The notes beneath the pieces were generated by a model, which was given only the letters and a program-made list of their open reading frames with translations, did no database searches and had not been told where the DNA came from. Of a DNA stretch of 64,000 nucleotides, positions 10,350 through 56,409 are shown piece by piece. Location: the NCBI GenBank assembly GCA_046329115.1, contig JAXLVG010000001.1, positions 61,287 through 125,286 on the forward strand, written 5' to 3'. Origin of the DNA: Flavobacteriales bacterium (GTDB lineage: Bacteria; Bacteroidota; Bacteroidia; Flavobacteriales_F; PHOS-HE28). A program made the position numbers and the translations under genes. Numbering within the stretch: the first letter of the stretch is position 1; each line of letters opens with the position of its first letter.

Positions 10350-10419
10350 GGTCGGCGTCTACCTTGCACCGCCCCGGGACCGGCGATCCACCGACCCGAC
10401 CCGGCCAGCAGCACCGATC

Positions 10420-16134: not shown

Positions 16135-16157
16135 GCCATCGGCTTACCTTGGTGCGC

Positions 16158-33972: not shown

Positions 33973-36900
33973 CTACTTCAGCAACGTCACGTGCCCGATC
34001 AGGTCGTGCTTCTTGCGGGTGATGAGGTCGCGGAAGTGGAGCTTCCAGGCGTAGACATCCTCCTTCACCAGTTCGCCGCTCATGCGCCCGTCCCACGTTT
34101 CGCCCACGCGGCGGCTCTCGAAGATCAGTTCCCCCCAGCGGTCGAAGACGAGCAGGTCATAGTCCGCAACGTTCTGCGGGTTGTTGAACACGGGCCTGAA
34201 GCCCTCGTTCATGCCGTCGTCATTCGGTGTGAAGGCATTGGGCACATGCACGATGAGCTCCCCCAGCACCACGACCGGATGACAGGTGGTGTCCACGCAA
34301 CCGTTGGCGTTCATCGCGGTCAAGCACACGGTGTAGGTGCCATCGAGCACATCGGGGAAGGTGAAGGACGGCTCGCCTTCCGTGGACGCGCCCAGCCCGG
34401 CGAAGTCCCAGAAGAAGCTTGTGGCGAAGGCGCTCTGGTTCATGAAGTCGACCGACGTGATGCCGGTGATCACCGTGTCCTCCACAGCCGTGAACGACGC
34501 GATCACCGGCGGTGGTGAGGCCACGGATGCGGTGGCCGAGGCCAGGCACCCGTTCGCGTCCTGCATCATCAGCATGTAACTGCCCGCACACAGTCCGGCG
34601 AACGCAGGCGTGCCCTGCCAGGTGAGGCCGCCATCCGCACTGAACAGCACACCCTCGGTGTCCACCACGGTGGCCGTACCGTCGCACTGCCCGGGGCAGA
34701 GCTCGTCCGTGGCCAGCACCGCGTCGATCACCAAAGGAGGCGGTTGTCCGATGGTAAGCTCCACGAACCCCTTGCAGCCAAAGGCATCGGTGATGATGAC
34801 ATCGTAAGCCCCGGCGCACAGCCCAGTTGCGCTCACGTCCGTCTGTCCCGCCACACCGCCGCTCCATTGGAACGTGTAGTCCGGTGTACCTCCGCTTACC
34901 TGAAGCGATGCGCTGCCATCGCAGGAACCATGGCATACCGCATCGGTCACGGTCGTGGTGGCCTGGATCGCCGGCGGCACGCTGACCACCACGGCGGCCT
35001 GATCGTTCGCACACGGCGCCGTGGCGTTCACCATGTAGGTGTACGTGCCGGGCTGGTCAACGGCCGGATCGAACAGGCCGCCCATGGCCGCGCCCCCCGG
35101 TGCAGACCAGGTGCCACCAGCGTCCGGCGAGCCACCAAGTGCGGTGAACAGGTCGACGGGCGCGCCGTCCGGACAGAGCGTCAGGGTATTGTCCGCGCCG
35201 GCATCGGGTGGCAATACCACTTCGGTGACCACCGTGGCCGTGGCGGCAGCGCACGGTGGAGTGCCGTGGACCATGTAGGTGTAGGCCCCGGACGGATCCA
35301 CCGCCGGATCGAAGTTCGCGCTGTGCGTGAGGCCGTTGAACGACCAGGAGCCTCCGGGATCGGGCGTCCCACCGAGCCATGCAAAAAGGTCCATGACCCC
35401 GTCGGTGCTGCAGAGCACGGTCGCTCCATCGGTACCCGGATCGGGCGGTTGCACAACGGAGATCAGCACCTGGCTGCTGGCGCTCTGGCAGGGGGGCGGT
35501 ACGCTCAGCGTGTAGGTATAGAGGCCCGGCTGCATCGTGGCCGGATCGAACACGCCGCCCTGCACCACGCTCGGGCCGGTCCAGCTTCCCCCCACATCCG
35601 GTGTGCCGCCCAATTGTGCGAAGAGGTCGATCGCGCTGCCATCCGCGCACAGGCTCGCCGCGCCGTTCCAGCCCGGATCCGGTTCCGCCGTCACCGCCAT
35701 CAGCACCTGTGCGCTGGCGGATGGGCAGGGCCATGTGCCCGCCACCGTGTAGGTGTAGGCCCCGGGAAGGTCCGTGGCCGGATTGAAGAGGGAGGTATGC
35801 GGCTGCCCATCAGGACCGGTCCAGGAACCGCCGGGCTGTGGTGCGCCCCCAAGCACCGTGAACAGGTCGCTCGCCGCGGCGCTCGCGCAGAGCACCGCGC
35901 TGCCATCGCTGCCCGCATCCGGCATGCTCTGGACCGCTACGACCACCTGGCTCTGCACGCTCGTGCAAGGAGCGGGCACATCGATGGTGTAGGTGTACGT
36001 GCCCGGGGCCATGCTGCCCGGTTGGAACAAGCCCCCGACCACCGGGCTGGGACCGCTCCATGTGCCGCCATTGTCCGGTGTGCCGCCCAGTTGATCGAAG
36101 AGCACCACCGCACTGCTGTTCGCGCAGAGCGTAACGGATCCATCCGTACCAGGGTCCGGTGCGGATACGACGTTCACAAGGACCGTGGACGTATCGGCGG
36201 GACAGGGTGCGATACCTGGTACGGTGTATGTGAGGGTCCCGGAAAGGTCGACCGCAGGGTCGAAGAGCGCACCGTGCGGTGCCCCGTTGAAGGTCCATGA
36301 TCCGCCACTTTGCGGCGACCCGGCAAGTTCCGCGAAGAGGTCCAGGGCAGGGGAGGACGCGCACAAGGTCACCGATCCATTTCCACCGGCATCCGGGGGA
36401 GCGTGAATGGTCACCAGAACCTCCGCGTCAACGCTTGGGCATGGTGCCGTGCCGGCCACGGTGTACGTGTAAATGCCCGACGCATCGATCGCGGGGTCCA
36501 CTTGGTCGCCGTGGGGGATCCCATTGAACGACCATTCGCCATCGGGGTCGGGGCTTCCTCCCAACAGTGCATCCAGGTCCACGACCGCGCTCGTGGTGCA
36601 CAGGTCCACGCTGCCGCCCGAGCCGGGGTCCGCCGGTTCCACCAGTGCGATCGTCACCGTGCTGCTTGTGCTGACGCACGGTGGTGGCACGTTGATGGCG
36701 TAGGTGTAGGTGCCGGGTGGGTCGTTCGCGGGATCGAAGAGCGCACCGTGGGCCGCACCGTTCGGATCGGTCCAGACGCCACCTGCGTCGGGCGTTCCGC
36801 CGAGCAGCCCAAGGAGCGGGAGCGCTGCAGCGGAACTGCAGAGCGTGGCGTTCCCGGGCAGACCTGCATCGGGGGTGCTGGTCACCGTCATGGTCACCGT

Positions 36901-39900
36901 GGCGCTCGCGCTCGGGCATGGTGCGGTACCGCTGACCGTGTAGGTGTAGATGCCGTTGGCATCCACGGAAGGGTCGAACGAACCGTTGTGCGGCGCCCCG
37001 TTGTAGGTCCATGCTCCTCCGGGATCCGGTGTGCCGCTGAGCTGCGCGAACAGGTCCACCGCAGGACTTCCGGTGCACAACAACAGCGCTCCATCGCCGC
37101 CTGGATCGGGAGGCGACGTGACGCTCACGTTCACCTGTGCGGCATCGTTGGCGCATGGCGCCGTGCCGGTCACGAGGTAGGTGTAAATGCCCGGCTGCAT
37201 CGTGCCCGGGTCGAACTGACCATTGCTCACGGCACTGGGCCCGCTCCAAGTGCCGCCGGCATCGGGCGTTCCACCGAGCTCCGCGAACAGGTCGATGCCG
37301 GACCCCGCAGCGCATGCGCTCAGCGTTCCATCGAGGCCTGCATCCGGAGGGGCCAGCTCGCTCACGGTGACGGTGGCCGCATCGCCCGGGCACGGTGCGG
37401 TACCTGAAAGCGTGTAGGTGTAGATGCCCGGAGCGTCGTTGTCCGGGTCGTACGAGGCGCTGTGGGATGCGCCGCCGACGCTCCAGGTCCCGCCGGCATC
37501 CGGCGTTCCCCCGAGCAGGGCGAAGAGGTCCATGGGGTCGTCCGTGCTGCAAACGGAAAGCGTTCCATCCTCGCCTGCATCCGGCGGTGCGTTCACGGTC
37601 ACTACCACGGTGGCCTGGTCATCGGGGCACGGGGCTGTACCCGTTACCGTGTATGAGTAGTTCCCCGGAGCATCGCTTCCGGGCGCGAAGGAGCCCGCGT
37701 GCGGCGCGCCAGCGAAGGTCCAGTTGCCGCCGGGTTGCGCGCCTGTGAGCGCATCGATCAGCGTTGCCGTGGGCGAGGTGGTGCAAACGGTCAACGCACC
37801 ATCCTGCCCGGCCTCGGGCGGTGCCTGCACCAGCACGGTGACAGTACTGCTCGCGTTCGTGCAAGGCGGTGGCACCGTGATGGTGTAGGTGTAGACCCCT
37901 GCTGCGTCGATCGCCGGGTCGAACATGCCGCCATGGGGAGTGCCGTTCACGCTCCATGTCCCGCCGGCATCCGGCGTGCCCCCGAGTTGCGCGAACAGGT
38001 CGATCGGGTCGCCGCTGGCGCAGACAACGAGCGCGCCATTGGTGCCGGGCTCCGGGTTGTTGGTCACCGAAACGGTCACCAGGGACTGGTCAGCAGGACA
38101 TGGCGCGATGCCGGCAACCGTGTAGGTGTATGCACCGGTCGCATCCGTTCCGGGCGAGAAGGTGTTCCCGTGCGGTACACCATTGAACGACCAGGAACCG
38201 CCGGCGTCCGCGCCCGCAAGCACCGTGAACAGGTCGATCGGCGGACTGCTGATGCACAGCAAGGCATCGCCATCCGCTCCAGCGTCGGGTGGCTGCACGA
38301 TGTTCACTGTGACGGTCGCGCTTTGGCTGGTGCAGGGGGGCGGCGCGTTCACCGTGTAGGTGTAGACCCCGGCCGCATCCACGGTCGGGTCCACCTGGCC
38401 GCTGTGCGGTGCCCCGTTGAAGCTCCAGGACCCACCGGCATCCGGAGTGCCCCCAAGCGCGGTGAAGAGGTCCGCTGCAGCGTCTGACGCGCACAGGGTG
38501 ATCGATCCATCCGTTCCCGGGTCGGGGTCGGTGGTAACGGCAACGGTCACGTTGGACTGATCGTCCGGGCACGGCGTGACGCCGGCGACCGTGTAGGTGT
38601 ATACGCCGGCCGCATCCGTTCCGGGATCGAACGTGCCGCCATGAGGCGCACCGTTGAAGGTCCACGTACCGCCGGTCTGTGCGCCGCTGAGCTCACCGAA
38701 CAGAGGCAATGGAGAGCCACTGACGCACAGCAGCGCATCACCGTCCGCACCGGCGTTCGCTGGTTGAACCACCATGACGGTCACTGTGGCGCTCTGGCTC
38801 GTGCACGGCGGCGGAACATCGACGGTGTAGGTATACACCCCTGCAGCCTCCGTGGCCGGGTCGAACGTGCCGGTGTGGGGCGCACCATTGAAGCTCCAGG
38901 ATCCACCTGGATCCGGTGTGCCGCCCAGGTTTGCGAACAGATCGATCGCGGCAGCGTTCGCGCACAAGGTGATCGAGCTGTTCATGCCGGGGTCCGGGTC
39001 GTTCGTCACCGCCACCGTCACCGCTGATTGGTCGTTCGGGCACGGAGCGATACCCGGAATGGTGTAGATGTACGCACCGGCAGCATCCAGGCCCGGGGTG
39101 AACAGGTTGCCGTGCGGAGCCCCGTTGAGCGACCAGGATCCCCCTGCTTGCGCCCCGCTCAGTTCGGCGAACAGGTCCAGCGCGGGGCCGCTGATGCAGA
39201 GGAGCGCATCCCCATCCGTGCCCGCGTCCGGCGGTTGAACGACGTCGACGGTCACGGTCGCGCTCACGTTCGCGCAGGGTGGGGGAACGGTGATGGTGTA
39301 GGTGTAGACACCCGGTGCGTCCGTTCCAGGGACGAAGGTGTTCCCGTGGGGGGCGCCGTTCGCGCTCCACGTGCCACCCAGGTCGGGTGTTCCTCCCAAT
39401 ACGGTGAACAGGTCGAACGTGCCGTCGCTGGCGCAAACGGTTGTGGTACCGTTCGTTCCCGGATCCGGTTGGGCGGTCACGGTGACATCCACGGTCGCCT
39501 GATCGGTTGGACAGGGCGCCGCACCCGTGACGGTGTAGATGTACGTGCCAGGGAGGTCGCTTCCGGGCGTGAACACATTCCCATGCGTGGCACCCCCGAA
39601 CGTCCACGTGCCTCCAGCTTCCGGAGCGCCTCCCAGTTCGGCGAAGAGGTCAATGGAGGGACTGCTGATGCACAGGATCGTTGCGCCGTCCGCCCCAGCG
39701 TCCGGTTGCTGGTTCACCGACACGATCACCTCGGCCTGGTCGTTGGGGCATGGTGCTGTGCCAGTGACCACGTACGTGTATTGGCCGCCGGCGTCCACGG
39801 ACGGATCGAAGGAGTTGCCGTGCGGGGATCCGTTGAACGACCAGCTCCCGCCAGGCTGCGCACCACCCAGCGACGCGAACAGGTCCACCGGTGTTCCGGA

Positions 39901-42900
39901 TGAGCATAAGGTGATCGAACCATCCGCGCCGGCGTCCACAGGCTGGTTCTCGGCAATGGTGACGGTCGCCTGGTCGTTGGGGCAGGGTGCGGTACCGGTC
40001 AACGTGTAGGTGTACACACCGGGCGTGCTGGTGCCGGGCGAGAAGGTGCCGTTGCTGGGCGCTCCACCGGGATCGGTCCAGGTGCCGCCGGCCTGGGCGC
40101 CACCGAGCAGGGGAAGGAGCGCAGCGGTGGCGTCGTTCGCGCAGACGGTGAGCGTGGCATCCGTGCCGGCGTCCACGGGCTGGTTCTCGGTGACGGTAAC
40201 AGTGGCCTGGTCGTTAGGACAAGGCGCGGTGCCGGTCAATGTGTAGGTGTACACACCGGGCGCACTGGTGCCAGGGGTGAAGGTGCCGTTGCTGGGAGCT
40301 CCACCGGGATCGGTCCAGGCGCCGCCAGCCTGGGCGCCAACGAGCAATGGAATGAGCGCAGCAGTGGCGTCGTTCGCGCAGACGGTGAGCGTGGCATCCG
40401 TGCCTGCGTCCACGGGCTGGTTCTCGGTGATGGTGACGGTCGCCTGATCGTTGGGGCAGGGTGCAGTACCTGTAAGCGTGTAGGTGTAAACGCCGGGCGT
40501 GCTGGTGCCGGGGGTGAAGTTGCCGTTACTGGGCGCTCCACCGGGGTCGGTCCACGCACCGCCGGCCTGGGCGCCACCGAGCAGTGGAAGGAGCGCAGCG
40601 GTGGCGTCGTTCGCGCAGACGGTGAGCGTGGCATCCGTGCCGGCATCCACAGGCTGGTTCTCGGTGATAGTGACGGTCGCCTGATCGTTGGGGCAGGGTG
40701 CAGCACCTGTAAGCGTGTAGGTGTATACGCCAGGCGTGCTGGTGCCGGGGGTGAAGGTGCCGTAAGTGGGCGCTCCACCGGGGTCGGTCCACGCACCGCC
40801 GGCCTGTGCACCACCCAGCAGAGGCAGGAGCGCAGCGGTGGCGTCGTTCGCGCAGACGGTGAGCGTGGCATCCGTTCCAGCGTCCACGGGCTGGTTCACC
40901 GTCACGGTCACGGTGGCTTGGTCGACACCCGGGCAGGGGGCGGCGCCGTTCACACTGTAGGTGTACGTTCCGGGAGCACTGGTCCCCGGGGTGAAGGTGC
41001 TGCCGGCCGTGGCACCGCCGGGTCCGGTCCAGGTTCCTCCCGTCATCGGAGCACCGCCTAGCAACGCGAACAGGTCGAAGGGTGCACTGTTGGCGCAGAC
41101 GGTGATCTGTGCATCGGTTCCCGCGTTAACGGGCGGCACAACGGTCACGGTCACCTGGTCAGTGCCTGTGCATGCGGGATGGCCGGCCTGCGAAACGGTG
41201 AGCGTGTAGGTCGTGGTGGTTCCGGGTGTGGCCGTCGGCGCGGCGATGTTGGTGGCGGAAAGGCCGGTGGCCGGCGACCAGGAATAGATGAAGGCGGGCG
41301 GTGGACCGCAGTCCACCACGCCGCTCCAGGTGGTCCCGTTCGGGAATGGCGGAGTGTCCGCGAACACCAAGTTGCCCTGGCCATCGTACAGGTTGTAGGC
41401 GTGTTCGTTGTTGAACAGCACACTCGGGTAGTAGATGAGCGCGATCGCATCGCCGTGTTCCACATTGATCGTCACCGAGCCGCTCGATCCGTTCGGCAGC
41501 GTCCAATCCTGTTCTACCCCGTTGATCACGATGCCGATCACCGCACCATCCCAGCCGTCGCCGAAGGAGTCCAGGAGGTCCAGCTGATAAGTGCAGGGTT
41601 GTGGCGGAAGGCCTCCGGAGATCACACTTCCGTTCAAGAGGGTGCTGCCGCCCTCGCAGATGCTGGTGTTGGCCCCGGCATCCACCACGATCGGCGGGGT
41701 GATTGTCACCACGATCGTGGTGTCGTAGCTGCAGCCGAAGTCGTCCACCGCATGGTACACGTAGTTGTATGTCCCCGCCGCTGCCTGCTGAAGACAGATC
41801 TGCTCGCAGCCGGGACCTGTGCTCACGATGCCGGGACCGGTCCACCACGTGCTGTCGCAGCCCGCTCCGTACTGCGGTGTGTAGCTGATTGCGTTCGCGT
41901 AGAGCGATGGGTCCAGATCGATGTTCCAGTCACACAGGAATCCGTTGTCCAGCTGCCACATGTCGCAGATGGTCAAGGTCCACAGCCCGTTCAATTGCGA
42001 GCCCACCAGGCCGGTTAGCGGTGACAGGCTTTGGTAGGTGCCCGGAGGAAGCTCCCATCCGAAGCCTGATCCATTGGCGTTCGCATAGGCCGCCATGGTG
42101 CCGTTGGACGACGTGTTGGCGAAGCAGTATTGTGCGCAGGTGCCGGGCTGCGGGTTCGCCTCGTCCGGGTCCACCGGTTGGCCCAGCAGGGTCTCTTGGA
42201 TGATCCCTTGTTGGTGCAGGATGACGGATTGGCCGCTCGGGCTGGTGATGGTGATCACCAGGTCGCCCAGCCAGCTGTGCTCGATGTTCATGCACAGCCC
42301 GAGCAATTGGTTGATGTTCGTCAGTGTGGCGCCCGGAGCGAACTGGGTGAGGTAGAGCTGGGCCTCGAAGCACGAGCCAACGTCGTCCGGCACGAAGACG
42401 CCATTGCCATAGGTGGTCTCCGGCTCATCAACGTACGGTGTCGGGTTCACCACGCCGTCCAGGCAGAGCTGTTCGCCCGCACAACCGGTGGTGCTGCCGC
42501 CCGTGCCCGTGAAGGTGGGGGGCGTGCCCACCCAAACCTGCAGGTCGATGCGGTTAACACTTGCGCAACCGTTGTTGTCCGTGACCGTGAGCTGCACGGT
42601 ATGCACTCCTGGATCCGTGAAGGTGTGGGCGATGGTGGGCACGGCCGAGGTCGTTGTGGTGCCGTCATCAAAGTCCCAGGTCCAGCTGACAAGGTTGTAT
42701 CCCGGTTGAGCCGTGGATCCGCTGCCATCAAAGTTCACCGAGGTGCCCATGCAGACGCGCGCGGGTGCCGCCTGCGTCATGGTGGCGGCTGCCACCGGTG
42801 GCGTGCACGGCTGGAAGCAATGGATGGAAGCTGCAAAGACCCCGGTGCCCGTGTTGTTCGAGTGCCAGACGAACGTGAGGCAACCCGAAGCATTGCCGGT

Positions 42901-43272: not shown

Positions 43273-43476
43273 ATGGTCTTGGGCAGGGTCGCGGCGTAAT
43301 GTCACGTCATACAGTGAAGGCCCGGACGAACGTGTCCACCGGCCCCGCCAAACTATCGGCCCACCCCGTTCGATGGATGTCCGGATACCGCTTTCATGGG
43401 ACAATTCGACGAACCGCCACGTGTGAGCATCCAGAAGGTCACCCCTGTCGATGGACCCCAAGGGGGCGGTGCCCGC

Positions 43477-46400
43477 TCAACGCAGTACCGTCACATGCCC
43501 CATGAACTCGTAGGGCCTGCCGGTGTATGCGGAACTGATGAGCAGCCGCCACGCGTACACCCCCGGCATCACCGGCTCTCCGTTGTAGCGGCCATCCCAG
43601 CCTTTGGTACGGTCGGTGGTGGAATGGACCAGCTCGCCCCACCGGTCGTACACCATGAACTCGAAGTCCTTGTTGGAGATGTCGCGACCCTGGACGTAGA
43701 GCACTTCGTTGATCCCGTCCCCGTCCGGTGTGAAACTGTTCGGCACGAACACCAGGAACTGGTCGATCACCTCCACGTATTTCAACGCGGTGTCCGAACA
43801 GCCCAGGTAGTTGGCCACAACGAGCTGTACGGGATAGGTATCCCCCAGGTCGTCCGGGAAGATGAAGAACGGATCGGGCACCGTGTCCGTTCCCAGGCCG
43901 GCGAAGTCCCATTGGTAGCTGGTGGCGTAAGGGCCGGCCTGTTCGATGAACTGGGTGCCGGGCTCGATCACGCTGGGCGGCTGCGGTGTCCAGGTGAACT
44001 CCGCGTTCGGCACAGCAGCCACCGTGATCCAGTCCACAATGGTGGTATCATCCGAACAGCCGTTCGGCCAGTGCACCGTGACGCCCACGTCGTAAACGGC
44101 CGGATCCATGTACGTGTGTCCCACGGGGCCGGGTGGACCCGGTACGACCAGTCCATCCCCGAAATCCCAATCCACCGTGGCACCGCCCGTGGTGTCGCGC
44201 ACCGTGAAGCGCACCGTGAACGGGTCGCAGCCGATGAGGCTGTCCGCCGTCAGCACCAGCTCGGGTATCGGGATCACGTCCACCTGTATGCAGCGCGTTA
44301 CATCCGTCGTTTCGCAGCCGTCGCCCAGGGTAACGCACCAAGGTCCAGAGGTGGTGGTGTTCACCGTGTAAGCGGCGCTCGTGGATGGCCCATCGCCCCA
44401 GTCGAAGGTGTATTGACCATCGCCACCCGCAAAGCTCTCCGGCGTCAGGACCAGGTCCGCCTCGGGGCAGGTCTCCAGGGTGTCGGGCACGCTCAGGCTC
44501 AGCGGCGGGTTCACCTGCACATCAATGGACACGGTGTCGCTTGAGCAGTTGTTCGGGTCCGTCACCCACACTTGGTACGTGGTGTTGGTGAGGGGCGTGA
44601 ACATGGCCGGTACGCCGACCGCTCCAGTGCTCCAGTTGAAGGTGAGGAGACCACCGCCCCCTTGCGCCGTACCGGTCAAGGTCGCGGCACCGGTACGGCA
44701 GATCAACGTGTCATCGCTCAACGTGATGATCTCCACCGGCGGCGGCTCGTTGATGGACACGTCCAGTGAGTCCTCGCATCCGTTGCCGTTCACGCCTTCG
44801 CTGATGAACACTTCGAAGTTGCCTCCGCTGCCGTAATAGACATCCCCGATGGCGCTCTGTGTGCTCTGCACCACATTGCCCTGTTCATCCACCCAGGTGT
44901 AGTCCCACGGCCCTCCATTGCCATCGGTGGTCACGGTGATGCTGCCGCTGCCGTCGTTGTTGCACAACGCATCCACCACGGTGGCTGTGTTGTTCATCCA
45001 GGTCAGTGCGTTCACCAGCACACTGTCCGAATTTCCGCACAAGGGATGGCCTGCGGGAAAGGCGGTGAGCACATACCAGGTCTGCTGCGTGGGTGTGGCC
45101 AGCGGATAGGGGATGTTCGCGTTGGAGAGTTCGCTGTTCGGGGTCCACTGGTACACGATCGGCCCCTGTGGGATCGGCGGCGTCAATTGCCCGTTCAGTT
45201 GGATCGGATCGCCACAGTTCACCGGCAGGGTGGCGGTCACTTCCACCACGGCCCCCGGGGTCACGGTCAAGGTCAACAACGTATCGTAGGTGCAGCCGAA
45301 GTCGTCGGTCACCGTGTACACATAGTCGTAGAAGCCAGAGGCCGGAGGCGTCACGGTGATCTCATCGCAGCCCGCGTCGGTGCCGGTGATGTTCGGTCCG
45401 GTCCAGAACGTGCTGTCGCAGCCCGCTCCGTAAACCGGGGTGAACTCAACCACATCGGGATAGAGTGATGGGTCGATCGTGAGGCCCCAGTCGAAGATGA
45501 AGCCATCGTCGGCGAAGAGGTTGTCGGTCACCGTGATGCTCCAGTTGCCGTTCAACGGACAGCCGATGAAGTTCGCGAAGGACTGTTCCGCCTGGTAGGA
45601 TCCCGGTGTCATGCAATTGTTGCCGGGTGTCACCGTGCTCGGTATCCAATTGCCTGCGGCGTTCTCCACAGAGAAAGGCCCAAAGGTGCCCAGATCGCCG
45701 AAGCAGTATTGGAAGCCGACACCGGGTGTGCCCACGCCCGGATCGATCGGGTCACCGAGGAAGGTGTTGCCCGGGCCCGTTCCGAGGCCGAATTCGTTGA
45801 AGAGCACCACGCTCTGGCCCGTGGGACAGGTCAATGTCACCGTCAGGTCGCCGATGTACGAATGCTCCATTGTGAAGCAGATCTGCTGCAGGTCCGTGGC
45901 GCTGCTGATCACGGTGCTGCCCGGAAAGCCCGTCACCGTGACCGCGGCATTGTAAGTAGCCCCCCCGCCGTCCGGCAGGATCACCAGGCCATCCACGATC
46001 GGCTCGGGCACGTTCGTCCATGTGGTGCCTTCCACATCGCCCAGGATCGTCGCGCTCTCTCCCACACAAATGCTCGATGGCGACATCGTCGTTCCCGACA
46101 GGTCCGGCACGGTGCCCACGCGCACCTTCACATCCACGTAGTTCACACTGACACAACCGATGTCATCGGTCACCGTCAACGTTGCGGTGTACTCTCCGGG
46201 TGCGGTGTAGGTGGCGCTGGCGGTCGGTCCTGTTGCCGTTGAACCATTGCCCAGGTCCCATGCATAGTTGTTCAGCGTCTGACCCGGAGCCGGGGAGGAA
46301 CCGGAACCGTCGAAGTCGACGCTCTCTCCGATGCAGATGCGCAAGGGCGACTCCGCCAGTGGCGCAATGGCGGCGGTGGGTTCGTCACAGGGTTGGTCGC

Positions 46401-46848
46401 ACAGGATCAGTGCCTGCCAGCCCGGTGCCTGCCCTGCGCCATCGGTGATGAACTGGAAGGTGAGGCATCCGGTTGAGGCGAACACCGCCAGGCCGGCCAG
46501 ACTGTTGGCCTGTGATCCGGTCTGCACGATGGGCGAACCCGTGTCCGGCCCGTCGTAGATGATCAGCTGGTCGCCCGGCCCCAGGTCGAAGGTGATGATG
46601 GCCACTTGCGTATTGGCCCCGGGGATCCCGGGACAGAAGGTGATGATGTGGGTTTCGTTGGGGCCGTAATCCTCGTCGTAGCCGCTATCGAAGAACTCCG
46701 CATTGCAGAGCTGCTCCGTGCCGCCGTTGCTCACCAGCACGGTGGGGGGCTGGGCGTGGGCCATGAACGGCGAGAGCAGCACGAACGGGAAGAGCGCCCC
46801 GCTCCGCAGGGTGCTCAGCAACGCGTTGAGCTCGGTCCGCATGTCCAT
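43477..46848 (-). CDS. T9SS type-B-CTD adhesin paralog 2 (about 1123 aa)
   Basis: Start MDMRTELNALLSTLRSGALFPFVLLSPFMAHAQ (signal). CUB-like N-domain, PKD (YAWDLGNGST), P-domain (CFTMEHSYIGDLTVTLTCPTGQSVVLF), SprB repeat (CNNDGSGSITVTTDGNGGPWDYTW), second PKD, and CTD FVPNSFTPDGDGINEV...MVYDRWGELVH...GHVTVLR. Confidence 0.8.
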   Translation of the reverse strand: MDMRTELNALLSTLRSGALFPFVLLSPFMAHAQPPTVLVSNGGTEQLCNAEFFDSGYDEDYGPNETHIITFCPGIPGANTQVAIITFDLGPGDQLIIYDGPDTGSPIVQTGSQANSLAGLAVFASTGCLTFQFITDGAGQAPGWQALILCDQPCDEPTAAIAPLAESPLRICIGESVDFDGSGSSPAPGQTLNNYAWDLGNGSTATGPTASATYTAPGEYTATLTVTDDIGCVSVNYVDVKVRVGTVPDLSGTTMSPSSICVGESATILGDVEGTTWTNVPEPIVDGLVILPDGGGATYNAAVTVTGFPGSTVISSATDLQQICFTMEHSYIGDLTVTLTCPTGQSVVLFNEFGLGTGPGNTFLGDPIDPGVGTPGVGFQYCFGDLGTFGPFSVENAAGNWIPSTVTPGNNCMTPGSYQAEQSFANFIGCPLNGNWSITVTDNLFADDGFIFDWGLTIDPSLYPDVVEFTPVYGAGCDSTFWTGPNITGTDAGCDEITVTPPASGFYDYVYTVTDDFGCTYDTLLTLTVTPGAVVEVTATLPVNCGDPIQLNGQLTPPIPQGPIVYQWTPNSELSNANIPYPLATPTQQTWYVLTAFPAGHPLCGNSDSVLVNALTWMNNTATVVDALCNNDGSGSITVTTDGNGGPWDYTWVDEQGNVVQSTQSAIGDVYYGSGGNFEVFISEGVNGNGCEDSLDVSINEPPPVEIITLSDDTLICRTGAATLTGTAQGGGGLLTFNWSTGAVGVPAMFTPLTNTTYQVWVTDPNNCSSDTVSIDVQVNPPLSLSVPDTLETCPEADLVLTPESFAGGDGQYTFDWGDGPSTSAAYTVNTTTSGPWCVTLGDGCETTDVTRCIQVDVIPIPELVLTADSLIGCDPFTVRFTVRDTTGGATVDWDFGDGLVVPGPPGPVGHTYMDPAVYDVGVTVHWPNGCSDDTTIVDWITVAAVPNAEFTWTPQPPSVIEPGTQFIEQAGPYATSYQWDFAGLGTDTVPDPFFIFPDDLGDTYPVQLVVANYLGCSDTALKYVEVIDQFLVFVPNSFTPDGDGINEVLYVQGRDISNKDFEFMVYDRWGELVHSTTDRTKGWDGRYNGEPVMPGVYAWRLLISSAYTGRPYEFMGHVTVLR

Positions 46849-46940
46849 TCCGCTTGCGAACTTCTGGGATCCCGCTCGCATCCTACCGACCTGATCGCCC
46901 GGCTTGCTGGGGATCCCGGGCCGTGCTGGTCCTTCCGTCA

Positions 46941-49900
46941 TCACTTCAGCAAGGACACGTGGCCCATCAACTCACGCGAGCCGCCCGTGCTGATGATCTG
47001 GTAGGTGATCCGGAAGGCGTACAGGTCCTCTTTCAGGATCTCGCCGCCACCGTTCATGTGCGTACCGTTCCAGCGCACGTTGGGATCCTTCGTTTCGAAC
47101 ACCACCTGGCCCCACCGGTCGAACACCAGCAACTGGAAGTTCGCCATGTCCGGAATGTTGCTGGTCATCCACCATTGGTCGTTGATGCCATCCCCGTCCG
47201 GCGTGAAGGCATTGGGGACGTAAGTGGCCAGCACATCGTCGATCACCACATCGTGGCACACCGTGTCCGCACAACCGTGCATGTCGATCGCGATCAGGCA
47301 GACGGGGTAGACGCCGGGGTATTTGTCCGAGAAGGTGAACTGCAGCTGGGGCTCGCTCGTGGTCATCAGACCGGCGATGTCCCAGATGTAGGCGGTCGCG
47401 TTCTCGCTCAGGTTGTAGAACGTCACGGTGGGGGCATCGATGTTCGCCGGCACCGGTACGTGGTCGAACTCCGCCACCACGGCCGGTGGCTCGGTCACGG
47501 TGTACGTGATGCTGGCCTGGCAACCCAATGCGCTCTCGATCACGAGGTCGTAGGTGCCGGCACAGGCGCCGGCCTTTGTGGCTTCCGGCACGAAGCTCGT
47601 TCCTCCATCGAAGCTGTAGAGCACCGCGTCGGCATCGGTGATCGTGATGCTGCCATCGCAATCGCCGTGGCACCAGGGTTCCACATGGCTCACCGCATCG
47701 ATCTGCAAGGGATTCGGTTGCAGGATCGAGAACTCCGTGTTGTCGCTGCATCCGTTCTCATCCGTCACGGTCAGCGCGTATGCTCCGAAGCATAGCCCGT
47801 CCGCGAAGGCATCGGTGGGACCGGCCACACCGTTGCTCCAGGCGTAGCTGAAGGCGCCGTTACCACCCGTCATGGCCACGGTCGCTGTTCCGTCGCAGGA
47901 ATCATGGCAGATCGCGTCGGTCAGGGTGAGCTGAATGTCCAGCGGTTGGGTGAACGTGATCGTCACACTGTCGATCAGGTAGCAGAGCACGCCGTCGTCC
48001 TCGATCCAATAGAACATCGCCGGGCCACTGCCGGGGGCGCTCACCTGCGTGGTGGGGCTGTTCGCATTGCCGAACACATAGCCGGCCGGCCCGCTCCAGC
48101 TTCCCGTGCCGGTGTTCCCGACACTGGCGTTCAAGGTGTAGGACAATGTGCATACGGTCTCATCAGGCCCCGCATCCACCACCCCGCAACAGCTCGGGTC
48201 GTCCGCGCTCAGGATCTGGATCTCCAGATCGGCGCTGCCTACACAACCAAGCGCGGTGGTCACGGTGTAGGTGTATACACCGGCCGCATCCACGGTGGGG
48301 TCGAAGGTGCCCGGGATCACGGCGCCGCCACTGTTGGTCCATACACCGCCGCTGGCCGGTGTGCCGCCCAGCATGTCGATCAGGTTGAACGTGGGCGGTG
48401 TGGCGCACACCACCACCAGGGTATCCTGTCCGGGATCCAGTCCGGGATCGATCGAGACGGTCACCTCATCGCTGGACACACAGTTGGGCTCGCCGGTCAC
48501 ATAGGCGGTCACCGTGTAGGTGGTGGTGCTCGTGGGCAGGGCCGTCGGGTTGGCGATGTTGGGGTTGCTCAGTCCGTCCGTAGGGCTCCAGCTCCAGGTG
48601 AGCGGGTCGCCCTGGCTGTTGGTGATGAAGGCGCTCATCTGCACGGGCGTGTTGCACACCACCTGGTCCACGCCAGCGTTCACCTGGAACGGTTCGTTCA
48701 CCGTTACCGTGATGGTGGTATCATAGGTGCATCCGAAGTTGTCCGTTACGGTGTAGACGAAGGGATAGGTGCCCGGTGCGTTCGCCGTGAAAACGGCCGT
48801 GTCGCCGTTCGCGCTCACATAGTCCGGCAGGGTGCCACCGCTCCAAAGGGAGGAGTCCGCACCCGCACCGATGGTGGGGGTGAACGTGGTCACATCCGGG
48901 ATGATCGCCGGGTTCCAGTTGATGGTCCAGTTGCAGATGAAGCCGTTGTCCGCGGCCCACAGGTCCGTGCTCTGGAAGATCCACTCGCCGTTCAAGGGAC
49001 AGCCGAGCAGGTTGTTGAAGGACTGCACCGCCTCATAGGTGCCGGGGGCGAGCGCTGTTCCCTGCGATGAAGGAACAGTGTTGGTAGAGGAGTTCTCCTG
49101 GAATGTTCCGTTGGTCGCAGTCGGGCTCCAGCAGTATGTCCAGCACGTGCCCGGTTCCGGATCGAAGGCGTCCATGTCGTTCGCATCGCCGATGAAGGTG
49201 CCGCCTCCACCTTGTTGATGGAGGATCGTGGTCTGCCCGTTCGGGCAGATCACCTGGAGCACCAGGTCGCCCATGAAGCTGTGCTCCATTTCCACGCACA
49301 CGCTCAATAGGTCGTTCACGTTCGTCAATGTCTGGCCTGGATCGAACTGTTCATAGGTGAGCCCCGATTGATAGGGTGCACCCACATCGTCCGGTAGCAG
49401 CGTCGGCTGCCCGATGCCCGCATCCGGCAGTCCGGTCCACGTAACAGGCTGCGCGTTGCCGGTGATCTCTACGGTGGCGCCGAAGCAGGTCTCGGTGCTT
49501 TCCGAGGTCAGACTGAAGTTTGGCGTTGTGCTCACCAGCACTTGCAGGTCCACCAGGTTCAGGTTCTTGCAACCATTATCATCCGTTACGGTCAACTGCA
49601 CAACGTATTCCCCGTCATCGTCGAAACTGTGTGTGGTGACCGGTCCGCTCAGGCTGTCGATGTTGCCGTCGTCGAAATTCCACGCCCATTGCTGCAGGTT
49701 GAAACCCTGAACAGCATAGGAGGCGGAACCATCGAAGGAGATGACCTCGCCCACGCAGGCCAGCAGCGGCACCGGCTCGTTCATGCTCGCCACGGCCGTC
49801 GGGTTGGAGCAGGGGGTGGTGCACTGGAAGCCGGCGGAGAACTGGCCCGTTCCCGTACCGTTCGACCACCATTCCAGCGTGAGGCATCCGGTGGTATTGA

Positions 49901-50282
49901 ACACCGTGCCGCTCACGATGATGTTCTGCAGGTCCTGCCCGGTGTACACACCCAGGGAGGTCGCGTTGGTGTTATCGCCGTCGTAAATGGCGATGTAATC
50001 GTCCGGGTTGCCGGCGGTGCTCAGGTCGAACACGAACCATGTGAGGTACACCACGTTCCCCGGAATGTCCGGACAGATGGTGAGCACATAGCTCTCGTTG
50101 TCCCCGTATTCGCCGCTCGGGCCACCTGTGTCCTCGATCACGCCCGAACAGGCGGTGACCGAACCCGCCGTGATGCTGTACTGCTGCCCTTGGGCAAGTG
50201 CGGAGGACACACTGCCGAGCATCGTGAGCGCGGCGAGCAGGGGCCTCAGGAACGACTTTGTGGGCCGGGTAAAGAACGCCAT
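46941..50282 (-). CDS. T9SS type-B-CTD adhesin paralog 3 (1113 aa)
   Basis: Signal MAFFTRPTKSFLRPLLAALTMLGSVSSALAQ. Same module order: CUB-like, PKD (WAWNFDDGN), P-domain (CVEMEHSFMGDLVLQVICPNGQTTILH), Ig-like domains, SprB repeats (CHDSCDGTATVAMTGGNGAFSYAW; CHGDCDGSITI), and CTD YVPNAFTPDGDGINDQW...LLVFDRWGQVVFE...GHVSLLK. Confidence 0.8.
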   Translation of the reverse strand: MAFFTRPTKSFLRPLLAALTMLGSVSSALAQGQQYSITAGSVTACSGVIEDTGGPSGEYGDNESYVLTICPDIPGNVVYLTWFVFDLSTAGNPDDYIAIYDGDNTNATSLGVYTGQDLQNIIVSGTVFNTTGCLTLEWWSNGTGTGQFSAGFQCTTPCSNPTAVASMNEPVPLLACVGEVISFDGSASYAVQGFNLQQWAWNFDDGNIDSLSGPVTTHSFDDDGEYVVQLTVTDDNGCKNLNLVDLQVLVSTTPNFSLTSESTETCFGATVEITGNAQPVTWTGLPDAGIGQPTLLPDDVGAPYQSGLTYEQFDPGQTLTNVNDLLSVCVEMEHSFMGDLVLQVICPNGQTTILHQQGGGGTFIGDANDMDAFDPEPGTCWTYCWSPTATNGTFQENSSTNTVPSSQGTALAPGTYEAVQSFNNLLGCPLNGEWIFQSTDLWAADNGFICNWTINWNPAIIPDVTTFTPTIGAGADSSLWSGGTLPDYVSANGDTAVFTANAPGTYPFVYTVTDNFGCTYDTTITVTVNEPFQVNAGVDQVVCNTPVQMSAFITNSQGDPLTWSWSPTDGLSNPNIANPTALPTSTTTYTVTAYVTGEPNCVSSDEVTVSIDPGLDPGQDTLVVVCATPPTFNLIDMLGGTPASGGVWTNSGGAVIPGTFDPTVDAAGVYTYTVTTALGCVGSADLEIQILSADDPSCCGVVDAGPDETVCTLSYTLNASVGNTGTGSWSGPAGYVFGNANSPTTQVSAPGSGPAMFYWIEDDGVLCYLIDSVTITFTQPLDIQLTLTDAICHDSCDGTATVAMTGGNGAFSYAWSNGVAGPTDAFADGLCFGAYALTVTDENGCSDNTEFSILQPNPLQIDAVSHVEPWCHGDCDGSITITDADAVLYSFDGGTSFVPEATKAGACAGTYDLVIESALGCQASITYTVTEPPAVVAEFDHVPVPANIDAPTVTFYNLSENATAYIWDIAGLMTTSEPQLQFTFSDKYPGVYPVCLIAIDMHGCADTVCHDVVIDDVLATYVPNAFTPDGDGINDQWWMTSNIPDMANFQLLVFDRWGQVVFETKDPNVRWNGTHMNGGGEILKEDLYAFRITYQIISTGGSRELMGHVSLLK

Positions 50283-50353
50283 GGATCGGCTGGGAGCTTA
50301 GCGTTAGCGAAGGTAGTCCATTGGGCCGTGGCTGTGCCATCGACCGAAGACTT

Positions 50354-50378
50354 GACGGATGGCCCGGTCAAATGGTTC
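50354..50378 (-). promoter_or_regulatory. candidate ECF-sigma-type promoter (GAAC-N17-CGTC) upstream of the adhesin cluster
   Basis: On the minus strand the sequence reads cGAACcatttgaccgggccatcCGTCaagtc, about 70 nt upstream of the adhesin-3 start (50282). It matches the generic ECF -35 GGAAC / -10 CGTC architecture with a 17-nt spacer. Confidence 0.3.
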
Positions 50379-50394
50379 GCTGGGGCAGCTACCT

Positions 50395-50429
50395 GTGCAA
50401 AAGAAGAGGGAGGTGCGTCGGCACCTCCC
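50395..50429 (-). terminator. rho-independent terminator after the anti-sigma-like gene
   Basis: Perfect 9-bp stem GGGAGGTGC-cgac-GCACCTCCC followed by UCUUCUUUUG on the minus strand. A second small hairpin (GGTCCG-ttcac-CGGACC) overlaps the stop codon. Confidence 0.55.
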
Positions 50430-50449
50430 TCCCCTTGAGACCGGTCCGT

Positions 50450-51796
50450 TCACCGGACCAGTTTCACCTTGCCCGTATAGGTCTCGGCCAGGTGCAGGCT
50501 CTCGCGGACGTCCACAACCCAGACGTATTCACCGGAGGCACAGTACTCCCCGCGGTTCTGCGGCTTTCCGGCCCAAGGCAGCGTGGCATCCTTGGTCTCG
50601 TACATCAGGTTTCCGTTCAGGTCGTAGACGGAGAGGGTGAACTTGACCCCAAGCTTCTGGAGCGCCGCCGGCATGAAGGTGTCCTCCTTGCCGTCGCCGT
50701 TCGGGCTGAAGCTGAACGGTGCATCAAGGTTGTAATCCTTGGCGATCCGGACCTCCTTCATCACCTTGTCCTCGCAACCGATCGGGTTGGTCACGGTGAG
50801 CTCCACCTGATAGGTGCCTTGGTTCTTGTAGATGTGGTCGGGGTGGGGGATGTCGCTGGATTGACCATCGCCGAAGTCCCAGTGGTACTTCACCCCGCCC
50901 AGGCTGCGGTTCTCGAAGTGGATGGAGGGCAGGTGCCCATCGTACTCCTGACGTACCAGATTGAACGCAGCCTTCGGCGCCTCGTGGATCACGATCACAT
51001 CGCTGCTCGGCTTGTTCTGGATGAAGCCGCCACCGGCGGAGCTCATGGAGAGCATCACCTGGTAGCGCCCGGGCTTGGTGAAGGTGTGTTCCGGATTGGC
51101 CTTGTTGCTGAAACTGCCGTCCCCGAAGTTCCAAAGGTAGATGCCGTCCTCGGGCATGTGCTCCACCTTGAAGTCGACCGACGTGCCTGCACATGCCTGG
51201 CTCACGCTCGCCCGGAAGGTGCGCTGCTCCTTCTCTCCGCTGGTGACCGGGGGGGCGGCAGTGACCGGAGGCTGGTTGGCCGCTTTGGCGCGGCGCTGCC
51301 CGGCATCCACTGGCTTGGTTGACGAAGAGGCTCCCTTTGCGGTCCCTTCAGCAGACGCGGTCTGCGAGGCGGCAGCGGTGGCCGGGTTGCTTGCGATGTC
51401 GCTGCTTTCGGCGGGTGACGGTTGTTCAGCAGCACCCGTGCTCGCTTTCGGTGCTACAGGCATTTCGTCCTCAGCAGCAATTTGCTTGGCGTCGGTACCT
51501 GCCTGGGGTGTTGCCGCCTGCGGGGTAGTGGTCGCGCCCGTTCCCTCCAGCGCGATGCCGCTCTTGTTCTCCTCGGTGCTTTCCGTGAAGTACCAGAACG
51601 CGCCGCCACCTATCAGCAGGCCACCGGCCAAGAGAGCGGCAAGACTCCAGCGCGAGCGCGCGGAACCACCGGTGCCAGCGTTCAGCGACCTCTCCATCTG
51701 GGCCCAATCCGCACTGTTGTAAGGCACCTCGAACTGGTCGAGGGCCTTCCGCACGTGCTGCTCGAAGGCGTCATGGGCCGGTTCGTGCATATGCAT
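50450..51796 (-). CDS. membrane-anchored anti-sigma-like protein with two PKD domains and a T9SS type-B (gliding-motility) C-terminal domain
   Basis: Cytoplasmic N-terminus of about 55 aa, a single TM segment (WSLAALLAGGLLIGGGAFWYF), and an Ala/Thr/Pro/Ser-rich linker of about 130 aa. Two PKD signatures (WNFGDGSFS, WDFGDGQSS). The C-terminus APFSFSPNGDGKEDTFMP...VYDLNGNLMYETKD...GKVKLVR is homologous to the adhesin CTDs. The gene starts 4 nt after the ECF sigma gene. No canonical zinc-binding anti-sigma motif is present. Confidence 0.6.
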   Translation of the reverse strand: MHMHEPAHDAFEQHVRKALDQFEVPYNSADWAQMERSLNAGTGGSARSRWSLAALLAGGLLIGGGAFWYFTESTEENKSGIALEGTGATTTPQAATPQAGTDAKQIAAEDEMPVAPKASTGAAEQPSPAESSDIASNPATAAASQTASAEGTAKGASSSTKPVDAGQRRAKAANQPPVTAAPPVTSGEKEQRTFRASVSQACAGTSVDFKVEHMPEDGIYLWNFGDGSFSNKANPEHTFTKPGRYQVMLSMSSAGGGFIQNKPSSDVIVIHEAPKAAFNLVRQEYDGHLPSIHFENRSLGGVKYHWDFGDGQSSDIPHPDHIYKNQGTYQVELTVTNPIGCEDKVMKEVRIAKDYNLDAPFSFSPNGDGKEDTFMPAALQKLGVKFTLSVYDLNGNLMYETKDATLPWAGKPQNRGEYCASGEYVWVVDVRESLHLAETYTGKVKLVR

Positions 51797-51800
51797 GGGA

Positions 51801-52382
51801 TCAAGGGAGCTTGTGCTCCTTTTTAAGCAGTTTCTTCAGGTTCTGTTTCGCCTTGGCCAGGTTGCTCTTGCTCGTACCGATGTTGATGCCCAGCAGCTCG
51901 GCGATCTCCTTGTGCGTCATCTCCTCGAAGACGTACAAGTTGAACACCGTGCGATAGGCCGGTGTAAGCTTCTGCATGGCATTGATCACGTCCGCCGGCT
52001 TCAGGTCCGGCATGTCCTCCGGGCCTTCGTCCTCCAGCACATCCTCCTCGTCCTGGTCCCCGAAGTCCTCGATGCTGCGGTCCTCGCCCAGCAGCAGGTA
52101 GGAGTTCTTGGCACGCCGGAAGTAGTCGATGGCCGTGTTCACCATGATCCGCCGGATCCAGCCCTCGAAGCTGCCGTTCCGGTTGAAGGCCGCCATGGAC
52201 CGGAACACCTTGATGAAGCCATCCTGCAGGATGTCCTTGGCTTGATCGTGGTTCTTGGTGTACCGAAGGCATACGGCCATCATTTTGCCATAGAAGAGCT
52301 CGTACACGCGCTGCTGGCTCCGGCGGTCCCCAGCGATGCACCCATCGATGATGCCGGAGAACGCCGATACCTCCGCCTCCAT
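51801..52382 (-). CDS. ECF-family RNA polymerase sigma-70 factor
   Basis: Region 2 (RVYELFYGKMMAVCLRYTKNHDQAKDILQDGFIKVF) and region 4 helix-turn-helix (VFEEMTHKEIAELLGINIGTSKSNLAKAKQNLKK). Start chosen at MEAEV; the ORF extends to 52454. Confidence 0.8.
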   Translation of the reverse strand: MEAEVSAFSGIIDGCIAGDRRSQQRVYELFYGKMMAVCLRYTKNHDQAKDILQDGFIKVFRSMAAFNRNGSFEGWIRRIMVNTAIDYFRRAKNSYLLLGEDRSIEDFGDQDEEDVLEDEGPEDMPDLKPADVINAMQKLTPAYRTVFNLYVFEEMTHKEIAELLGINIGTSKSNLAKAKQNLKKLLKKEHKLP

Positions 52383-52465
52383 GCTCTGCCATGTCCCCTC
52401 AAGACGCGATCCTTCGCGCAGGGTTGCCAGCGTAACGGGGCTGACCGTGGCCATGCGGGGAAGGT

Positions 52466-52508
52466 AGTGACAATTGCCGAACCGCCAAGCGGTTTGTTGG
52501 CAATTCGC
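52466..52508. promoter_or_regulatory. inverted repeat / nested hairpin in the divergent ECF-sigma - mdh intergenic region
   Basis: caATTGCCgAACCGCcaaGCGGTTtgttGGCAATtc: outer arms AATTGCC/GGCAATT and an inner hairpin CCGC-caa-GCGG. Confidence 0.3.
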
Positions 52509-52556: not shown

Positions 52557-53543
<987 letters not shown>

Positions 53544-56233: not shown

Positions 56234-56409
56234 TGGTTCCTGGTGGACGGCTTGGATCAGCGGTAGGAGCGACGAAAGTACCGCCCGTCAAGAAGGCCAA
56301 CCTTGACCAACGGCACACTTTGTACACCATCCGGGGCAGGCAAACACACGCCGGAACGGCTTGTGCCTTAGGCTGCGGCAATGGTTGAAGGCCGCACGGG
56401 GCATCCTTC

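Follow-up and report, generated by a model that had tools for sequence, protein, structure and literature searches.

We analysed a 64,000-nt stretch of Flavobacteriales bacterium DNA (GenBank assembly GCA_046329115.1, contig JAXLVG010000001.1, positions 61,287 to 125,286), hereafter the window, in which a gene for an extracytoplasmic function (ECF) sigma factor is followed by a gene for a 448-aa protein. We consider it probable that the two form a sigma/anti-sigma module of the Das/Dma (EcfO/Reo) kind, in which the outer membrane barrel is replaced by a type IX secretion system (T9SS) type-B anchor, and that the module controls the neighbouring genes for type-B cargo. On the minus strand, the gene order is the sigma factor gene, the 448-aa gene (starting 4 nt past the sigma stop codon), a spacer of 167 nt and three large open reading frames (ORFs) that encode 1113, about 1130 and about 3100 aa, and the unit stops short of a small unassigned ORF and gyrB. 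An earlier sequence-only reading of this DNA had described the sigma factor gene, the 448-aa gene, the adhesins, a hairpin and an ECF-like dyad, all of which were present where it had placed them (Table 1).

Architecture of the 448-aa protein

The protein follows the layout previously proposed for it, with a short N-terminus, one transmembrane (TM) segment, a linker, two PKD domains and a C-terminal domain (CTD), which was borne out by Kyte-Doolittle hydropathy, AlphaFold2 and Pfam. Residues 9–40 (DAFEQ.L...L.QFEVPYNSADWAQMERAL) are almost invariant in orthologues; across 112 of them F11 and E12 are nearly invariant and V24, P25, N27, S28, D30 and W31 are invariant. The AlphaFold2 model, based on the same 112 sequences, places short helices at 10–22 and 28–39. 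Predicted local distance difference test (pLDDT) values were below 50 over most of residues 58–188 (block means 38–47) and mostly above 90 over PKD-PKD-CTD (block means 70–98), and the TM segment was modelled as just a short helix of low confidence. A Foldseek search against the PDB returned generic PKD/Ig repeats only, such as GhpA.

The only hydrophobic segment spans residues 52–70 (Kyte-Doolittle 1.69, compared to 0.74 for the next best elsewhere), with RSR before it and acidic residues after it. By the positive-inside rule the N-terminus is predicted to be cytoplasmic. Forty-nine conserved residues precede this segment, which agrees with the earlier assignment of a TM anchor rather than a cleavable Sec signal peptide. 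We also considered the N-terminus as a long signal peptide and rejected it, the region being conserved, helical and tandemly repeated in relatives. The tether that follows is 90–144 aa long in the 112 orthologues, with a mean column identity of 23%.

Conservation of the N-terminal motif and its sigma factor partner

More than 120 full-length relatives share 45–82% identity with the 448-aa protein, and at least 164 GTDB species representatives encode a family member, all of them uncultured Flavobacteriales. No cultured carrier was identified, and a search seeded with a low-GC relative returned uncultured Flavobacteriales only. We assembled 82 related loci, 81 of which included upstream DNA, and in 80 of these 81 the sigma factor gene lies −14 to +25 nt upstream of the anti-sigma candidate. 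In the remaining locus (L065) the anti-sigma ORF is split, leaving an apparent gap of 490 nt to the sigma factor gene. The co-occurrence of an ECF sigma factor with a CTD-bearing, single-TM protein that had been anticipated from the window is thus found throughout the family, and extends to distant relatives.

An exhaustive search of 1.84 billion representative proteins with a profile of the first 70 aa, covering the motif and the TM helix, gave 480 protein matches at E ≤ 1e-3. A word-index search with the same profile gave 15, mostly short (32–124 aa) and probably fragments. Among 100 motif-bearing representatives of at least 300 aa, 37 ended in the type-B CTD model CHU_C (PKD domains being present in 44), 33 in the barrel OMP_b-brl_2 and 4 in PorP_SprF. 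The same N-terminal module is therefore fused in three ways, to a small generic barrel, to a PorP/SprF barrel or to a domain of the kind that binds PorP/SprF, and the most economical interpretation is that each of these fusions brings the far end of the anti-sigma factor to the outer membrane. Proteins of the OMP_b-brl_2 type that adjoin ECF sigma factor genes matched the profile with E-values of 1.6e-10 (P0199) and 2.4e-21 (P0149).

Every relative inspected that had upstream DNA was directly preceded by an ECF sigma factor gene, with gaps of −14 to about +110 nt. These included the OMP_b-brl_2 types P0149, P0199 and P0196, which occur in unrelated neighbourhoods, the PorP_SprF type P0175 (0-nt gap) and four distant CHU_C types, among them P0264, P0171 and P0163. 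The window sigma factor is 44–47% identical to the partners of three OMP_b-brl_2-type proteins and 52% identical to the partner of one PorP_SprF-type protein. It contains regions 2 and 4 only, in ~190 aa, as is typical of ECF (sigma-70 group 4) factors, and scores 58.7 bits for Sigma70_r2, 58.5 for Sigma70_r4_2 and 97.4 for TIGR02937 (cut-off 42.9). Scores were under the NCBIfam cut-offs for TIGR02985 (89.4 vs 126.4) and NF058625 (76.7 vs 130), and the nearest solved structures are SigW, SigH and SigE. The short start at ATG 52382 is better than the longer ORF from 52454, because the conserved promoter dyad falls within the longer ORF and because the sigma factors of distant relatives are 188–196 aa long.

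Many profile matches hold 2–8 tandem copies of the motif ahead of the TM helix, amounting to up to ~270 aa of repeats. In the OMP_b-brl_2 (Dma-type) relatives P0137, P0149, P0158 and P0196 the ~30-aa motif occurs four to eight times before the TM helix, and the window protein has one copy. Four proteins (P0175, P0187, P0189 and P0194) carry tandem N-terminal motifs and a TM helix ahead of a PorP/SprF T9SS barrel at the C-terminus, an anti-sigma-like layout that seems not to have been described.

The sequence-only reading had made the anti-sigma assignment from position and topology alone, and the N-terminal motif and the sigma adjacency now lend it independent comparative support. It could be argued that the 448-aa protein is no anti-sigma factor and is instead a small membrane-anchored or secreted surface protein, co-transcribed as a member of the regulon of a sigma factor that is controlled otherwise. 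The profile check against known anti-sigma families would agree with this, as none of the RskA, FecR and zinc-finger (zf-HC2, zinc-binding anti-sigma domain) models in Pfam and NCBIfam matched the protein at E ≤ 0.01. We nevertheless regard it as very improbable, since the 30-aa motif is near invariant while the linker drifts freely, precedes the sole hydrophobic segment and hence is not a signal peptide, occurs in up to eight tandem copies before the TM helix in relatives, and belongs to proteins that follow an ECF sigma factor gene in all nine relatives with upstream DNA. In addition, those proteins of this architecture that have been studied experimentally use their first 40 residues to bind their sigma factor (PMC10927553). 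The anti-sigma assignment is well supported by these comparisons, because a near-invariant motif recurs with three outer membrane-directed C-termini and, in every case examined with upstream DNA, behind an ECF sigma factor gene.

Affiliation of the C-terminal domain

The CTD of the 448-aa protein matches Pfam CHU_C (PF13585) with 42.6 bits, above the gathering cut-off of 27, and retains the blocks FSPNGDG, VYD..G..YET, W.G, GEY.W and G.V.L.R in alignment with the CTDs of the three cargo ORFs. The cargo ORFs pass both CTD models (CHU_C 54.5–57.8 bits, TIGR04131 48.7–52.9 bits) and also match PKD, proprotein-convertase P-domain, CUB-like and SprB-repeat models. The homology to the cargo CTDs that had been read from the window thus held for CHU_C and the conserved blocks, and fell short for TIGR04131, where the 448-aa protein scores 31.1 bits, just below the NCBI cut-off of 35.

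This sub-threshold score would suit an alternative in which the CTD-like module is an ordinary periplasmic sensor (PKD plus beta-sandwich) that recognises a ligand or a component of the envelope and is unrelated to T9SS, the pair then being a stress module of the conventional ECF/anti-sigma kind, as would the loss of the NGDG block in two orthologues (P0076 and P0087). So would the alignment scores, which are higher within the anti-sigma CTDs (269) than among the cargo CTDs (226) and fit a distinct, constrained role. We find such repurposing improbable given the clear CHU_C match in the 448-aa protein and in 37 of the 100 representatives, a distant orthologue that reaches the TIGR04131 cut-off (35.2), the sister architecture that carries PorP/SprF itself, and the linkage of the pair to type-B cargo even at 22–28% identity and with different outer flanks.

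Linkage to type-B cargo genes

In the high-GC family the whole neighbourhood is syntenic, with glnA, secDF, an FG-GAP repeat gene and mdh on one side of the sigma, anti-sigma and cargo genes and gyrB on the other, so that linkage there would in itself prove little. The relatives that are only 22–28% identical seem more telling; their outer flanks differ, and the order is mdh, then sigma factor, CHU_C anti-sigma candidate, a small gene and a CUB/PKD/CHU_C protein. In one of them this last protein is an M4 protease and not adhesin-like. Low-GC relatives have a gene of 128–139 aa between the anti-sigma candidate and the first cargo gene (L084 9620–10006, L091 11181–11600, L092 5981–6367), which is absent from the window and which in L092 is SiaC-like (PF09345). 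mdh is the divergent upstream neighbour of the sigma factor gene in every locus examined (the window; L091 7997–8932; L092 2398–3330), even where the anti-sigma candidate is only 22–28% identical and the other flanks differ.

Terminator and promoter dyads

The GC-rich hairpin after the anti-sigma stop codon, previously described as a strong terminator, has a folding energy of −29.3 kcal/mol (z = −3.7), with UUCUUUU after it, and a hairpin is found at the equivalent position in about 60 of the 82 loci. Motif discovery on the DNA 3' of the hairpin returned the dyad aGGCA(A)CC-N16-CGTCA, which exceeded the 95% shuffle threshold in 71 of the 82 loci. The GAAC-N17-CGTC string of the sequence-only reading does exist in the window, at 50354–50378 (−), and is weak as a bare pattern, with 15 matches to GAAC-N16-18-CGTC against 7.9 expected. 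Because of this weakness, and because the window shows no enrichment of the dyad, we relied on positional conservation across related genomes, which alone makes the string significant.

A matrix learned solely from cargo-upstream DNA was applied to the DNA upstream of the sigma factor gene, where it found a dyad at a fixed position in 79 of 82 loci, compared to 4 of 82 reverse complements and 18 of 410 shuffles. Counted from the short start codon, the dyad lies either at −47 (TGGCAACC-N15-CGTCT) or at about −132 (AGGCATCC-N15-CGTCT), with the general form GGCAACC-N15/16-CGTC, and the consensus of the cargo dyad equals this motif. GGCAACC-N16-CGT(C/T) was also found upstream of the sigma factor genes in distant CHU_C-type and two OMP_b-brl_2-type loci, and looks like a signature of the sigma family to which the window factor belongs. 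No dyad was found after the anti-sigma gene in the low-GC relatives. The conserved terminator, the conserved dyad and the agreement between the two promoter motifs support in outline the earlier proposal that the sigma factor drives the adhesin genes, less so in the window itself, where the cargo copy is loose. Control of the adjacent type-B cargo operon is plausible, with support at the level of the family.

The top dyad match in the window, GGGCAACG...GGCGTCTA at 10333–10361 (+), scored 17.2 bits and is situated 59 nt upstream of a gene for a family-2 glycosyltransferase (10420–11133); it could be a regulon member or a chance match. A TAyCTT box is conserved in all clades just upstream of the long-ORF sigma start (about 52459–52466 (−) in the window). 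The box is similar to TAnnTTTG, the −7 element of housekeeping promoters in Bacteroidota, and, if it is such an element, may mark a second promoter of the sigma-A type. In the clade L038–L082 the terminator U-tract, TATTTTTG, is immediately followed by the GGCAACC box, ~45–55 nt past the anti-sigma stop codon, and coincides with the TAnnTTTG consensus, such that the terminator and a possible housekeeping promoter element overlap.

Features of the locus and its surroundings

The features of the locus are listed in Table 1. The window is chromosomal DNA of 62–67% G+C, with the housekeeping genes accA, dnaB, murB, gyrB, mdh, secDF and glnA-III around the locus, and mdh (52602–53543, +) points away from the sigma/anti-sigma/cargo unit. 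We scanned 39 ORFs, flanking genes included, against Pfam, and NCBIfam models were also used. No T9SS machinery gene was found among these 39 ORFs. Two candidate type-A CTD cargo genes, for an FG-GAP repeat protein (53967–56381, −) and an M28 peptidase (16131–17366, +), matched Por_Secre_tail with 25.8 and 23.2 bits, just under the Pfam cut-off of 27, and suggest that the organism may possess a T9SS.

Table 1 Positions of the sigma/anti-sigma pair, the cargo genes and the regulatory elements in the window.
Feature	Position	Strand	Basis
ECF sigma factor gene, 193 aa	51801..52382	-	Sigma70_r2, Sigma70_r4_2, TIGR02937
448-aa Dma-like anti-sigma candidate, whole gene including stop codon	50450..51796	-	
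Codons 9-40, two-helix motif DAFEQ..L..FEVPYNSADWAQMERSL, presumed sigma-binding region, presumed cytoplasmic	51677..51772	-	Orthologue conservation, profile, AlphaFold2 helices
Codons 50-70, single hydrophobic TM segment after RSR	51587..51649	-	Kyte-Doolittle, sequence
Codons 71-193, Ala/Thr/Ser/Pro-rich disordered tether	51218..51586	-	Orthologue drift, pLDDT
Codons 194-352, two PKD domains	50741..51217	-	PKD_4 97.3 bits in two stretches; pLDDT mostly >90
Codons 358-448, putative T9SS type-B CTD (CHU_C)	50453..50725	-	Pfam; TIGR04131 (below cut-off); alignment
Intrinsic-terminator-like hairpin and U-tract after anti-sigma gene	50396..50436	-	Fold energy, conserved position
ECF-type dyad upstream of cargo 1, AGCGAACC-N16-CGTCAA	50352..50381	-	Motif discovery, shuffles
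ECF-type dyad, putative promoter for autoregulation of the sigma/anti-sigma operon, TGGCAACC-N-CGCGTCTT	52401..52429	-	14.3 bits; 47 nt upstream of ATG 52382
Type-B-CTD cargo 1, 1113 aa; signal peptide, CUB-like, PKD, P-domain, SprB repeat, CHU_C	46941..50282	-	
Type-B-CTD cargo 2; ORF to 46944, likely start ATG 46881 or 46848 before signal peptide	43477..46881	-	
Type-B-CTD cargo 3, about 3100 aa; start uncertain, probably GTG near 43251-43272 before signal peptide	33973..43461	-	

Discussion

The closest described system is that of Dma1 (BT_4721) of B. thetaiotaomicron, annotated as OMP_b-brl_2, whose gene lies beside that of Das1, a sigma factor of the ECF21 group (Pardue et al. 2024, PMC10927553). 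Residues 1–40 of Dma1 pull down Das1. Behind them come a TM helix, a long stretch of disorder and, at the C-terminus, a barrel that is located in the outer membrane and was found in outer-membrane vesicles (PMC10927553). The same system is known as Reo/EcfO in B. fragilis and P. vulgatus (PMC13114119). The 448-aa protein resembles Dma in its sigma adjacency, its short N-terminal module (~40 aa), its single TM helix and its long tether. Proteins with the exact Dma architecture share its N-terminal motif, and the family is restricted to Bacteroidota. Outer membrane attachment would differ from that of Dma in needing a T9SS and a separate PorP/SprF-type barrel, and the candidate regulon consists of type-B-CTD surface proteins rather than NigD lipoproteins or vesiculation genes. 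The Dma paper nowhere mentions T9SS (PMC10927553), and no T9SS- or CTD-bearing variant is mentioned in the Dma/Reo literature searched. With four of the Dma features present and the barrel missing, we treat the 448-aa protein as one that would work like Dma without being a strict member.

A T9SS CTD protein is also known to feed an ECF sigma pathway in the PorA – PorXY – SigP system of P. gingivalis (PMC7712824, PMC12152298). As in the model proposed here, information from the secretion system or the cell surface passes by way of a CTD protein to an ECF sigma factor that has T9SS-related genes under its control. PorA, however, is a separate, fully exported type-A CTD surface protein, SigP is bound by the two-component system PorY/PorX through which PorA acts, and no anti-sigma factor is involved, whereas in the 448-aa protein the CTD and the presumed sigma-binding region share one polypeptide.

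Type-B CTD proteins are exported by the T9SS and stay bound to PorP/SprF-like outer membrane barrels, which act as their cognate shuttles and anchors (PMC9143113, PMC12618676). With SprB/SprF and PG1035/PorP the window shares the CTD family (PF13585/TIGR04131), the conserved blocks and the setting beside large PKD/SprB-repeat surface proteins. It differs in that known cargo is made with a cleavable Sec signal peptide and its gene usually, though not obligatorily, has a porP/sprF-like gene directly downstream, while the 448-aa protein has a conserved, predicted cytoplasmic N-terminus, a membrane anchor and no adjacent porP/sprF.

In FecA-FecR-FecI and in the SusC-like/anti-sigma/ECF modules of Bacteroides polysaccharide utilization loci, a TonB-dependent transducer contacts a FecR-type periplasmic domain. 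These systems resemble the present one in that an ECF sigma factor is held by a single-pass inner membrane anti-sigma factor whose periplasmic part is coupled to an outer membrane protein. No FecR domain or TonB-dependent receptor was found among the window ORFs with Pfam and NCBIfam, and the FecA-FecR-FecI type has been contrasted with Dma (PMC10927553). The signalling logic that the sequence-only reading had called possibly new is thus partly precedented, by Dma1/Reo, which reach the outer membrane (PMC10927553), and by PorA-PorXY-SigP (PMC7712824). An anti-sigma factor that itself bears a T9SS CTD was not found described in the literature searched, and the combination of both on one protein stands as novel within it.

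What we infer about how the sigma factor is bound, how the 448-aa protein lies across the envelope, how the T9SS engages it, what the signal is and which genes form the regulon would combine as follows. The 448-aa protein would be anchored in the inner membrane, its N-terminus facing the cytoplasm, where the two-helix motif (aa 9–40) would hold the sigma factor, and a disordered tether of roughly 120 residues would span the periplasm. The T9SS would hand the CTD to a PorP/SprF-type outer membrane barrel supplied in trans, to which it would stay bound, such that the protein is tied to both membranes. If the distal module were lost, pulled or proteolysed, possibly after the T9SS, the availability of PorP/SprF or the outer membrane had changed, the tether would be degraded. 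The freed sigma factor would then transcribe from GGCAACC-N15/16-CGTC promoters its own operon and, past the terminator, the three-gene type-B-CTD operon.

Several observations weigh against this model. One concerns topology: cargo of the T9SS is normally free in the periplasm and equipped with a cleavable signal peptide, we know of no precedent for a chain anchored in the inner membrane that engages the translocon, and a T9SS client of this kind would pose a real topological problem. The eight-stranded OMP_b-brl_2 barrel of Dma was not found in the 448-aa protein, which has PKD-PKD and a putative type-B CTD instead and scores below the TIGR04131 cut-off, and the link to the published Dma/ECF21 family is an indirect one, through the architecture, the motif in common, the resemblance of the sigma factors and the dyad. 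No porP/sprF-like gene (PF11751) was matched among the 39 window ORFs, flanks included, and therefore all four CTD genes count as orphans. In one locus (L049, 11338–13332) the pair is followed directly by gyrB, with no adjacent type-B cargo gene. Conserved adjacency need not imply common function here, mdh being an equally conserved neighbour. At the promoters, AAC/CGTC dyads are generic to many ECF groups. In the reverse test with a strict sigma-derived matrix only 23 of 81 cargo sites reached 9 bits or more, and the window cargo promoter, at 3.6 bits, is a loose variant of the dyad. A window-wide scan with the dyad matrix gave 8 hits at ≥13 bits against 8.4 expected, and the matrix is too unspecific for regulon prediction in a single genome. 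Finally, the anti-sigma CTDs do not co-vary with the neighbouring cargo CTDs (p = 0.95).

The missing co-variation also counts against the version proposed in the sequence-only reading, in which PKD-PKD-CTD never crosses the outer membrane and instead acts as a periplasmic decoy or competitor. Hanging on its tether, it would be bound by periplasmic or translocon components of the T9SS in competition with true cargo, and their occupancy would set the stability of the anti-sigma factor and hence adhesin expression. Such a decoy would make sense of an intact CTD, which retains all the conserved blocks common to the cargo CTDs and scores above the CHU_C cut-off, and of an inner membrane anchor that makes full export topologically awkward. 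With four CTD genes and no dedicated PorP/SprF gene, one shuttle could also serve all, as it does for the orphan cargos of F. johnsoniae (PMC12618676). Relatives with the same N-terminal module, however, end in genuine outer membrane barrels (OMP_b-brl_2 or PorP_SprF), which argues for a distal end in the outer membrane and not in the periplasm, and we judge competition in the periplasm to be unlikely.

A more specific proposal, which we advance tentatively and hold to be rather doubtful, is that of a trans-envelope tether: the T9SS would load the CTD on a PorP/SprF-type shuttle while the N-terminus in the inner membrane holds the sigma factor, and the flux of secretion, the availability of shuttles or motion of the surface machinery would pull on the tether or uncover it and release the sigma factor, matching the supply of type-B proteins to the capacity of the machinery. 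If so, the 448-aa protein would be a direct sensor of secretion state or of mechanical force and, together with its PorP/SprF-fused relatives, would constitute a T9SS-wired branch of dual-membrane anti-sigma factors.

For the Das/Dma-like module that we favour, the CTD of the anti-sigma factor may couple the expression of the adhesin genes to the condition of the secretion machinery, and it would do so in a conserved family, about a third of the motif-bearing representative proteins being of the CHU_C type. If the model is true, it would define an outer membrane route for one branch of the dual-membrane anti-sigma class and provide a simple circuit of sigma factor, anti-sigma factor, terminator, promoter and cargo operon. 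The 448-aa protein would also be the first T9SS client to keep an inner membrane anchor, a point of relevance to the handling of substrates by the translocon, and the pair would be a direct regulatory wire from the T9SS/gliding-adhesin apparatus to transcription.

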